This document shows positions 4,107-36,572 of a stretch of 64,000 bases of DNA, piece by piece. Source of the DNA: Escherichia coli (lineage in GTDB: Bacteria > Pseudomonadota > Gammaproteobacteria > Enterobacterales > Enterobacteriaceae); NCBI RefSeq assembly GCF_003334785.1, contig NZ_QOWV01000003.1, one strand, 5' to 3'. Every line of letters starts with the position of its first letter. The first letter of the stretch is position 1. Both the position numbers and the translations under genes were made by a program. Under the pieces are notes generated by a model. That model saw only the letters and a list, made by a program, of their open reading frames with translations. It had not been told where the DNA came from and did not search any database.

Positions 4107-4135
4107 ACCACCACATAACTATGGAGCATCTGCAC

Positions 4136-5440
4136 ATGAAAACCCGTACACAACAAATTGAAGAATTACAGAAAGAGTGGACTCAACCGCGTTGGGAAGG
4201 CATTACTCGCCCATACAGTGCGGAAGATGTGGTGAAATTACGCGGTTCAGTCAATCCTGAATGCACGCTGGCGCAACTGGGCGCAGCGAAAATGTGGCGT
4301 CTGCTGCACGGTGAGTCGAAAAAAGGCTACATCAACAGCCTCGGCGCACTGACTGGCGGTCAGGCGCTGCAACAGGCGAAAGCGGGTATTGAAGCAGTCT
4401 ATCTGTCGGGATGGCAGGTAGCGGCGGACGCTAACCTGGCGGCCAGCATGTATCCGGATCAGTCGCTCTATCCGGCAAACTCGGTGCCAGCTGTGGTGGA
4501 GCGGATCAACAACACCTTCCGTCGTGCCGATCAGATCCAATGGTCCGCGGGCATTGAGCCGGGCGATCCGCGCTATGTCGATTACTTCCTGCCGATCGTT
4601 GCCGATGCGGAAGCCGGTTTTGGCGGTGTCCTGAATGCCTTTGAACTGATGAAAGCGATGATTGAAGCCGGTGCAGCGGCAGTTCACTTCGAAGATCAGC
4701 TGGCGTCAGTGAAGAAATGCGGTCACATGGGCGGCAAAGTTTTAGTGCCAACTCAGGAAGCTATTCAGAAACTGGTCGCGGCGCGTCTGGCAGCTGACGT
4801 GACGGGCGTTCCAACCCTGCTGGTTGCCCGTACCGATGCTGATGCGGCGGATCTGATCACCTCCGATTGCGACCCGTATGACAGCGAATTTATTACCGGC
4901 GAGCGTACCAGTGAAGGCTTCTTCCGTACTCATGCGGGCATTGAGCAAGCGATCAGCCGTGGCCTGGCGTATGCGCCATATGCTGACCTGGTCTGGTGTG
5001 AAACCTCCACGCCGGATCTGGAACTGGCGCGTCGCTTTGCACAAGCTATCCACGCGAAATATCCGGGCAAACTGCTGGCTTATAACTGCTCGCCGTCGTT
5101 CAACTGGCAGAAAAACCTCGACGACAAAACTATTGCCAGCTTCCAGCAGCAGCTGTCGGATATGGGCTACAAGTTCCAGTTCATCACCCTGGCAGGTATC
5201 CACAGCATGTGGTTCAACATGTTTGACCTGGCAAACGCCTATGCCCAGGGCGAGGGTATGAAGCACTACGTTGAGAAAGTGCAGCAGCCGGAATTTGCCG
5301 CCGCGAAAGATGGCTATACCTTCGTATCTCACCAGCAGGAAGTGGGTACAGGTTACTTCGATAAAGTGACGACTATTATTCAGGGCGGCACGTCTTCAGT
5401 CACCGCGCTGACCGGCTCCACTGAAGAATCGCAGTTCTAA
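4136..5440 (+). CDS. aceA: isocitrate lyase (434 aa)
   Basis: ORF 4121..5440 trimmed to ATG 4136 with GGAG upstream; product [22 protein letters not shown]... matches AceA. Confidence 0.97.
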
Positions 5441-5446
5441 GCAACA

Positions 5447-5695
5447 ACAACCGTTGCTGACTGTAGGCCGGATAAGGCGTTCACGCCGCATCCGGCAATC
5501 GGTGCACGATGCCTGATGCGACGCTTGCGCGTCTTATCATGCCTACAGCCGTTGCCGAACGTAGGCCGGATAAGGCATTTACGCCGCATCCGGCAATCGG
5601 TGCACGATGCCTGATGCGACGCTTGCGCGTCTTATCATGCCTACAACCGTTGCCGAACGTAGGCTGGATAAGGCGTTTACGCCGCATCCGGCAAT
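5447..5695. repeat. REP/BIME cluster: about 2.5 tandem copies of a ~100-bp unit in the aceA-aceK spacer
   Basis: Repeated units CCGTTGC(T/C)GA(C/A)(T/C)GTAGGCCGGATAAGGC(G/A)TT(C/T)ACGCCGCATCCGGCAATCGGTGCACGATGCCTGATGCGACGCTTGCGCGTCTTATCATGCCTACA read directly. Confidence 0.93.
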
Positions 5696-5720
5696 TCTCT
5701 GCTCCTGATGAGGGCGCTAA

Positions 5721-9612
<3,892 letters not shown>

Positions 9613-20394: not shown

Positions 20395-20660
20395 GCACAA
20401 GGGAAGAGCGGAAGACGGGTGGGCGCAGAGCGATACTTCGCTACTATTTTCACCCAGAAGTGCTCCACCACTTGCGAAACGCCCGACTGCGAACGCTTCT
20501 GGTGACAACCCAGGGGATTCAGCCCCTGTAGCCGATGATGAACGTGGCCAGCCGTTCAATCACCTCGGCGATGCACCCCCTCAGGTGTTATCACAGGACT
20601 GGCTCCTCCAACACCGTTACTTGGGCAACGCGCCTCTTCTGGCCTGCGCTAGCGCAGGTA
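20395..20660 (-). promoter_or_regulatory. lysC leader containing the lysine riboswitch
   Basis: Long structured untranslated leader upstream of lysC; minus-strand reading contains ...AGAGGCGCGTTGCCCAAGTAACGGTGTTGGAGGAGCCAGTCCTGTGATAACACCTGAGGGGGTGCATCGCCGAGGTGATTGAACGGCTGGCCACG... which I recognise as the E. coli lysC lysine-sensing leader; bounds approximate. Confidence 0.8.
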
Positions 20661-22545: not shown

Positions 22546-22626
22546 GTAGGCCGGATAAGGCGTTCACGCCGCATCCGGCAACCGATGCCTGATGCGACGC
22601 GGTCGCGTCTTATCAGGCCTACAGGT
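22546..22626. repeat. REP element downstream of pgi
   Basis: GTAGGCCGGATAAGGCGTTCACGCCGCATCCGGCA...GCCTGATGCGACGCGGTCGCGTCTTATCAGGCCTACAGG. Confidence 0.9.
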
Positions 22627-22695
22627 CGATGCCGATATGTACATCGTATTCGGCAATTAATACATAGCACGATTGATTAAATAACCTTAATAACA

Positions 22696-22723
22696 ATGCC
22701 GACGTTATGTCGGCATTTTTTTA
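22696..22723 (+). terminator. pgi intrinsic terminator
   Basis: Hairpin ATGCCGAC-GTTAT-GTCGGCAT followed by TTTTTTT. Confidence 0.85.
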
Positions 22724-23030
22724 TCAGATAAATCCCCTTGTCTGTGATTTAACGGAAATCATACCATGAGGTTAATCCTAAAATAGATTTTTAATCGTTG
22801 TTTATTTCGGAAAATACGCAGATTAATTGCTTTTGTTTTTATTTTAAGTTTATGATTTTTATTGTTATTTAAATATAAGTTGAAACTTATATTTGATATT
22901 CATTCCAATTATCCTAAAACGCCATCGCTAATTCCCCGCGCCGTAATTCGCATGCTTTAGTTGTGTATACTCGATCCCGCCCGAAATGTTTTTGGGTAAA
23001 TCTCCATTCATTCAATGAAGGGAAATTGTT

Positions 23031-32217: not shown

Positions 32218-32345
32218 CAGGACGGATAAGGCTTTCACGCCTTATCCGACAACAACTGCCTGATGCGACGCTGACGCGTCTTATCAGGCCTACATACGTT
32301 TCGGTTTTGTAGGCCGGACAAGGCGTTCACGCCGCATCCGGCATT
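32218..32345. repeat. REP/BIME cluster in the malE-malF spacer
   Basis: Inverted REP units GACGGATAAGGCTTTCACGCCTTATCCGAC...GCCTGATGCGACGCTGACGCGTCTTATCAGGCCTACA...GTAGGCCGGACAAGGCGTTCACGCCGCATCCGGCA. Confidence 0.93.

Positions 32346-36448: not shown

Positions 36449-36572
<124 letters not shown>

Follow-up and report, generated by a model that had tools for sequence, protein, structure and literature searches.

The aceA–aceK spacer of Escherichia coli carries a BIME-2 array of variable length that is probably a minor contributor to low aceK expression

How is the product of aceK held so far below that of aceA, the gene before it in the aceBAK operon, and what part in this is played by the repetitive DNA that lies between the two? 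A product ratio of 0.3:1:0.003 is quoted in a study of the BL21 transcriptome (PMC5435950). The initial annotation of the DNA considered here pointed to tandem repeats in the aceA–aceK spacer and proposed that they reduce aceK expression through the structure and processing of the mRNA. The explanation that we favour, with a probability of roughly three in four for its parts taken jointly, is that the repeats are a BIME-2 element acting as an accessory 3′ barrier or attenuator, that the main drop in aceK expression arises elsewhere, and that the Y REPs of the element are sites for DNA gyrase.

The window, by which we mean the whole stretch of 64,000 nucleotides of E. coli DNA that was analysed, has the gene for malate synthase A (aceB) and metA upstream of aceA, which is the metA–aceBAK arrangement of E. 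coli. The open reading frames that flank the repeats are identified by NCBIfam as isocitrate lyase and isocitrate dehydrogenase kinase/phosphatase; with aceA upstream and aceK downstream, both on the + strand, the array lies inside the operon, as had been stated. The aceA open reading frame has its first ATG at 4121, and a gene of the RefSeq length (1305 nt, as in related records) would begin at 4136; its TAA stop codon occupies 5438–5440. At the far end of the operon, the open reading frame in the position of arpA (7426–9612, − strand) overlaps the 3′ end of aceK in the window. In two other E. coli strains, 2012C-4502 and FCI1 (L008 and L090), iclR comes directly after aceK, without arpA, and the annotated length of aceK is 1725 nt, against 1737 nt. 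The features with which the argument is concerned are the following.

4121–5440, + strand: aceA, isocitrate lyase (open reading frame list; NCBIfam NF011645, 802.7 bits).
5441–5720, + strand: aceA–aceK intercistronic spacer, 280 bp, between the TAA of aceA and the ATG of aceK.
5447–5695, + strand: 98-bp BIME-2 unit in 2.5 tandem copies (Tandem Repeats Finder; direct-repeat family D1/D2).
5463–5497, + strand: Y REP no. 1, GTAG...GGCA orientation, 0 mismatches to the Y consensus, palindrome I6, starting 22 nt past the aceA stop.
5498–5509, and again 5596–5607, + strand: head-to-head linker of 12 nt, ATCGGTGCACGA (from the sequence and the REP coordinates).
5510–5546, − strand: Z2 REP a, inverted, 2 mismatches to the Z2 consensus; with Y REP no. 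1 it forms the naRNA4-model match at 5466–5543.
5547–5560, + strand: tail-to-tail linker of 14 nt, AGCCGTTGCCGAAC, with a related copy at 5645–5658 and a degenerate copy at 5449–5462.
5561–5595, + strand: Y REP no. 2, 2 mismatches, in the unit that is missing from K-12.
5608–5644, − strand: Z2 REP b, inverted, 2 mismatches, within the naRNA4-model match at 5564–5641.
5659–5693, + strand: Y REP no. 3, the last REP, 2 mismatches, with a partial Rfam match at 5662–5699.
5710–5723, + strand: Shine–Dalgarno-like GAGGG of aceK (5710–5714) and its ATG (5721–5723), from the sequence.
5721–7457, + strand: aceK, isocitrate dehydrogenase kinase/phosphatase (NCBIfam NF002804, 943.5 bits).
6059–6088, + strand: inside aceK, an intrinsic-terminator-like hairpin CCGCTCG-N8-CGAGCGG (6059–6080) followed by CUUUUUAU, from a terminator scan that is independent of Term-seq.

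Tandem Repeats Finder reports a single array at 5447–5695, with a period of 98, 2.5 copies, 94% matches, no indels and a score of 449. A separate repeat search places three in-register copies at 5447, 5545 and 5643, that is, at a spacing of 98 bp, with palindromes within each unit; units 1 and 2 do not differ in their final 45 nt. The five REPs alternate in orientation (Y+, Z2−, Y+, Z2−, Y+), and each unit is composed of a Y REP in the GTAG orientation, the 12-nt head-to-head linker, an inverted Z2 REP and the 14-nt tail-to-tail linker. REPs were typed against Y and Z2 consensus sequences that we take to be the accepted ones, and the five lie at 0–2 mismatches from them. Independent support for this typing comes from the RF02564 matches of the units, from the matches of that model elsewhere in the window and from the listing of the K-12 locus. 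The array matches the Rfam model RF02564 with an E value of ~1e-14, and the repeat is therefore far beyond chance. The initial description of a ~100-bp unit in about 2.5 direct copies with inverted REPs was thus accurate (98 bp, 2.5 copies, 94% identity, five REPs), and its assignment to the BIMEs can be narrowed to BIME-2, with Y and Z2 in alternation, under which name the K-12 locus is listed.

REPs, or palindromic units, are imperfect palindromes of ~35–40 nt with a GTAG/CTAC end that are able to form a stem-loop, and the palindromes here (I6 and I7) are of this kind. The array is extragenic and its sequence is dispersed: the spacer, used as a query, matches a median of at least 36 places per E. 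coli genome, and at least 40 matching pieces are found in 4,931 records. BIME-2 elements were defined, and the variation in their copy number between strains was described, by Ton-Hoang et al. 2012; in the present case Y and Z2 alternate, the tandem copies vary between strains, and the linkers are short and without an IHF site. All of the traits of REPs and of BIME-2 elements that can be tested are present, and the feature is a BIME-2 of the textbook type. The related BIME-1 elements (the RIP/RIB/IRU elements) likewise consist of a Y REP and an inverted partner REP, but their partner REP is Z1, their long L linker carries an IHF site and they occur as single copies (Ton-Hoang 2012), whereas the partner REP here has the longer loop of the Z2 type, the linker is of 12 nt and the units are in tandem. 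The IHF consensus WATCARNNNNTTR has no match in 5441–5720, and BIME-1 was rejected because the spacer lacks an IHF site, as well as on these other differences. Sutormin et al. 2019 enter the K-12 locus in their Table DS3 as ‘BIMEs2 aceA>-aceK>’; both the locus (in K-12) and the kind of element are already known, and nothing here is categorically new. Within the literature collection searched, no paper was found that deals specifically with the aceA–aceK REP.

Rfam model RF02564 (naRNA4), whose gathering score is 59.5, matches the array twice on the sense strand, with 85.6 and 81.8 bits. Scores so far above the gathering level would be expected if the units encoded naRNA4-like nucleoid-associated RNAs, cut from the aceBAK transcript, that condense the chromosome together with HU. 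The model is, however, in effect a generic Y–Z2 BIME-2 unit, and it has three further above-gathering matches in the window (22549–22619, 32220–32290 and 36449–36519, all on the + strand), which are other BIME-2 elements. Moreover, a 2026 preprint that has the original naRNA4 laboratory among its authors reports no measurable compaction of the nucleoid by REP325/naRNA4. A promoter scan of the spacer and its surroundings gave no σ70-like promoter on the + strand; for want of such a promoter in the spacer, both an independent naRNA gene and an internal promoter specific to aceK were rejected. The match to RF02564 reflects membership of the BIME-2 sequence family and is not a demonstrated RNA gene, and we regard a role of these units as nucleoid-associated RNAs as extremely improbable. 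Elsewhere in the window, Rfam matches at the gathering level comprise a 5S rRNA (69–184, +), a lysine riboswitch (20450–20646, −) and the enterobacterial sRNA STnc430 (22685–22834, −).

The number of units at this position differs between strains of E. coli. From the 5,426 complete genomes of this species, two samples drawn at even spacing gave 118 full spans, and these served to estimate the following allele frequencies.

Spacer of 280 bp, with the same architecture as the window: 55/118 (47%).
Spacer of 182/183 bp, Y-Z2-Y, as in K-12 and O157 Sakai: 27/118 (23%), a class inflated by laboratory derivatives of K-12 (about 10 of the 27).
Spacer of 48 bp, without a REP: 16/118 (14%).
Spacer of 124 bp, a Y REP and a chimeric Z2/Y REP: 11/118 (9%).
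Spacer of 215 bp, 4 REPs: 4/118.
Spacer of 85 bp, one Y REP: 2/118.
Spacer of 228 bp, 4 REPs: 1/118.

Outside the 118, among partial matches that were not joined, are an allele of 313 bp with 6 REPs (L007) and a variant of 217 bp. The suggestion that copy number may vary is therefore borne out, by spacers of 48, 85, 124, 182/183, 215/217, 228, 280 and 313 bp that hold 0–6 REPs in E. coli. The BIME-2 of K-12 shares with that of the window its locus, its flanks (300/300 nt), its REP types and its linkers, and differs from it by one Y–Z2 unit, the window having 5 REPs in 280 bp and K-12 having 3 REPs in 182 bp. The K-12 spacer is otherwise identical to that of the window, and a deletion of 98 bp that starts anywhere in 5549–5567 yields it exactly. 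Either allele is found on 300-nt flanks that are 100% identical between strains; since the two differ by one unit on identical flanks, expansion and contraction must be recent and ongoing.

The ‘integer-unit’ alleles (L002, L004, L007, L008, L089 and L090) end in a chimeric REP with the 5′ arm and loop of a Z2 REP and the 3′ end of a Y REP (...GCGCGTCTTATCCGGCAAT), and this structure fits a deletion, mediated by microhomology, between a Z2 REP and the Y REP that follows it. Two types of head-to-head linker, ATCGGTGCACGA and ATCAAC/ATCAGC/ATGAGC, coexist, sometimes in one array (L007). The 48-bp spacer without a REP, as found for example in E. coli strain 4621 (L005, locus 301–348), has instead a GC hairpin of 7–8 bp and a strong Shine–Dalgarno sequence, AAGGAG, where the BIME alleles have GAGGG. 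It is similar to spacers of the hairpin type and to its counterparts in Phytobacter (L018) and Intestinirhabdus (L077), with which it shares the ending ...GTAAGGAGAGGCG-ATG; its flanks are only ~95% identical to those of the window.

What occupies the same gap in other species was determined by a scan of one genome per species, which yielded 80 enterobacterial aceK loci, 79 of them including the end of aceA. Three kinds of spacer can be distinguished. The first, of ~47–55 bp, consists of a GC-rich hairpin (CCCTCTCCC...GGGAGAGGG) and a G-rich Shine–Dalgarno sequence, and is found in Enterobacter, Lelliottia, Raoultella, K. oxytoca, Yokenella, Phytobacter and others. The second, of ~91–107 bp, contains one inverted pair of lineage-specific REPs and occurs in Salmonella enterica subsp. 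arizonae and diarizonae, Citrobacter, Kluyvera, K. indica and K. grimontii. The third comprises the BIME-2 arrays of Escherichia: E. whittamii has a spacer of 308 bp with 6 REPs, and two further Escherichia species have BIME-2 spacers of 198 and 116 bp. The longest array seen at the aceA–aceK site is that of E. albertii NBRC 107761 (L011, locus 959–1500), where a 542-bp spacer with the short head-to-head linker ATCAAC contains 11 alternating Y and Z2 REPs, or 5.5 units; this count and some others were read by eye, the best-match typing scan being prone to miss some REPs in long arrays. In seven spacers of 106–126 bp, from Enterobacter, Kosakonia, Phytobacter and Kluyvera, a different palindromic element (CCCTCACCCTAACCCTCTCCCC ... 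GGGGAGAGGG) is present in two copies; it looks like another dispersed repeat family in the same gap. With or without REPs, the predicted minimum free energy of the spacer is −16 kcal/mol or lower in 78 of the 79 species of Enterobacteriaceae, and the folding z score is −2 or lower in 72 of the 78 that have a spacer of usable length. The exception is a Citrobacter-like contig (L035, locus about 1440–1505) from which the REP pair has been deleted, leaving almost no spacer; its aceA stop codon has changed from TGA to GGA, and aceA runs on for 10 more codons to a TGA that overlaps the ATG of aceK. This contig is labelled Edwardsiella ictaluri ATCC 33202; an identity of 88% between its AceK and that of E. 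coli makes the label doubtful.

Such variability could be taken to mean that the array is neutral, selfish DNA, for which an untranslated gap that tolerates hairpins, lying after a highly expressed gene, would be a permissive or preferred place to land, and that it has no selected effect on aceBAK expression or on the topology of the chromosome. The length of the array varies freely (0–6 REPs within E. coli, 11 in E. albertii), with alleles that differ on identical 300-nt flanks; chimeric and partly deleted REPs are tolerated; and different repeat families fill the same gap in different genera. Set against this are the strongly structured spacer of 78 of the 79 species, the sequence of the hairpin differing among them, the RNA 3′ end that K-12 has at the REP and the unusually many gyrase cleavage sites there (both considered below), and the precedent of REP325, which has real effects on neighbouring genes. 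On balance, a purely neutral array seems doubtful to us, while deserving to be kept in mind.

The preferred explanation makes the array an accessory barrier in the transcript. The RNA of the spacer has a predicted minimum free energy of −134 kcal/mol (z −7.6), and the region 5431–5760 one of −150 kcal/mol (z −6.35). Term-seq data for MG1655 grown in LB to an OD of 2.0 (Adams et al. 2021, Supplementary file 1) include a 3′ end at 4218571, with an average read count of 1,115. This position corresponds to 5696 (+) of the window, 3 nt past the last Y REP and 25 nt before the ATG of aceK, the coordinates having been transferred by aligning the aceK ATG at 5721 with MG1655 4218596. Two more 3′ ends lie inside aceK under the same conditions. 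One, at 4218832, has a read count of 1,109; the other, at 4218963, is dominant, with 56,453 reads at LB 2.0 and 4,963 at LB 0.4, and is ascribed by Adams et al. 2021 to an intrinsic terminator, which they score at 5.9. The dominant end is at aceK +368, or window 6088, and is roughly 50-fold stronger than the end at the foot of the REP; its read count may be inflated, since AceK-int is stabilized by Hfq. AceK-int is a published Hfq-dependent sRNA (MG1655 4218879–4218963, window 6004–6088), the 3′ end of which is marked by the hairpin inside aceK.

The terminator scan is in agreement with the position of the dominant end: it gave no terminator-like site in 5441–5720, and its only + strand sites, at 6005–6020 and 6059–6080, are inside aceK. 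The hairpin there is conserved, with 91.6% of cells paired among 70 distinct enterobacterial sequences and some compensatory changes at the closing pair; the constraint on the coding sequence is a confounding factor in this conservation. The hairpin, together with a rare CGG codon, is kept in 79 enterobacterial species. The down-shift from aceA to aceK was reportedly ascribed by Chung and colleagues, in 1993, to inefficient translation of aceK and to termination within the gene. Premature transcriptional termination in aceK is also described in the BL21 transcriptome study (PMC5435950). Most of the fall in transcript within aceBAK probably occurs at the hairpin inside aceK.

It has to be asked, nonetheless, whether the ~300-fold drop from AceA to AceK could be due principally to the hairpins of the BIME, by termination or processing in the spacer, with the number of units setting the ratio. 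The K-12 3′ end just past the last REP and the extreme predicted stability of the spacer RNA would fit this, as would what is known of REPs elsewhere. REP325, a BIME-2 of 12 hairpins in the yjdMN operon, stabilizes the upstream mRNA and attenuates the downstream gene 8–10 fold, partly in a Rho-dependent manner (2026 preprint), and tandem gene pairs that are separated by a REP are biased in expression towards the upstream gene. Like the array of the window, REP325, which is the source of naRNA4 and of RF02564, is a Y/Z2 BIME-2 that lies between two genes of an operon (yjdM and yjdN) and is transcribed in the sense direction; it differs in having 12 hairpins against 5, and aceK has an internal terminator of its own. 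The effects of REP325 were shown by experiment, and the aceA–aceK array is likened to it by sequence and position. Against the BIME as principal cause are the far stronger 3′ end at the +368 intrinsic terminator, conserved across the Enterobacteriaceae, the termination inside aceK in BL21, and the two causes reportedly named by Chung and colleagues. Furthermore, an attenuation of ~10-fold could not explain a drop of ~300-fold, and many genera have only a hairpin in the spacer. As REPs are missing from the spacer in ~14% of sampled E. coli and in many genera, the BIME cannot be the essential cause of low aceK expression, and we consider it unlikely to be the principal one. The original proposal of a down-shift through REP mRNA structure is thus upheld in part, by the K-12 transcript that ends 3 nt past the last REP, but not as an account of the bulk of the effect, for which the dominant end at aceK +368 and the alleles and genera without REPs speak otherwise. 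The BIME is probably a minor contributor to low aceK expression.

The array might alternatively act on translation, either by stalling ribosomes at the end of aceA, in the manner of Liang and Deutscher, or by occluding the ribosome-binding site of aceK. For occlusion, the minimum free energy fold, which is a prediction only, pairs 5700–5725 with 5672–5693, the 3′ half of the last Y REP, with predicted unpaired probabilities of 0.27 for the Shine–Dalgarno sequence and 0.18 for the AUG. An occluded site would also agree with the inefficient translation of aceK that Chung and colleagues are said to have described in 1993. The competing hairpin of the REP itself, however, is very stable and forms first during transcription, and the predictions for other alleles vary without a pattern. 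For stalling, the rule of Liang, Rudd and Deutscher 2015, in the form in which it is quoted in PMC12306157, is that the REP starts <16 nt after the stop codon. Here the GTAG begins at 5463, 22 nt past the end of the TAA at 5440, and the stem begins at 5467, 26 nt past it; ribosome stalling at the aceA stop was rejected because a distance of 22–26 nt is beyond the required <16 nt. An action of the REPs on translation, by one route or the other, is quite improbable in our estimation.

At the level of DNA, the evidence comes from the in vivo mapping of gyrase in K-12. Sutormin et al. 2019 list for the aceA–aceK BIME-2 (131 bp in K-12) 8 Cfx, 2 RifCfx, 0 Micro and 2 Oxo gyrase cleavage sites; the number of Cfx (ciprofloxacin-induced) sites exceeds that of the sucB–sucC BIME-2 which those authors highlighted. 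The sucB–sucC element is comparable in that it also lies within an operon of central metabolism and has multiple in vivo gyrase cleavage sites; it differs in locus, in unit sequence and in unit number. Gyrase cuts Y REPs more often than Z2 REPs (Sutormin et al. 2019), and the allele in the window has three Y REPs. By analogy with K-12, we infer that these Y REPs are sites of binding and cleavage by DNA gyrase in the window allele too.

The favoured explanation can then be assembled as follows. The array belongs to the genome-wide population of REPs and BIMEs, which is thought to have been spread by the REP-associated transposase TnpA-REP/RAYT, and its length changes by unequal recombination or by replication slippage between the 98-bp direct repeats. 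In the aceBAK transcript, the REPs are predicted to fold into very stable hairpins that would serve as an accessory 3′ barrier or a partial attenuator, giving aceB–aceA messages whose 3′ ends lie at the base of the last REP and adding modestly to the excess of AceA over AceK. The 3′ end at the last REP has been demonstrated for K-12; the mechanism that produces it is suggested by the analogy with REP325 and with classic work on REPs. The main cause of the down-shift of aceK would be the conserved intrinsic terminator 368 nt inside the gene, along with inefficient translation of aceK. Any role of the BIME in the RNA must be either dispensable or replaceable, given the 48-bp spacers without REPs (~14%) and the contig L035.

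The properties on which this explanation draws, namely REP/BIME arrays, the binding of gyrase, effects on mRNA and copy-number polymorphism, are all established, and the locus alone matters little. What it offers is a natural allelic series at a single operon junction, where E. coli strains have 0, 1, 2, 3, 4, 5 or 6 REPs and in some cases identical flanks, next to a gene whose product is needed at ~1/300 of the level of AceA and controls the point at which the TCA and glyoxylate cycles branch. For these reasons, the series is usable for tests of the effect of REP dosage on upstream mRNA stability, read-through and the recruitment of gyrase, effects which are still debated (2026 preprint). A more speculative suggestion, which we put forward tentatively and hold to be rather unlikely, is that the aceA–aceK gap may need a strong hairpin as the 3′ barrier of the aceBA message, and that this hairpin is swapped in each lineage for one from whichever palindromic repeat family is active there, the number of units in Escherichia (0–11 REPs) being a fast-mutating heritable dial. 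If this were true, the dial would set the ratio of AceA to AceK or the local supercoiling, and hence the set-point of the glyoxylate-shunt branch, differently between strains.
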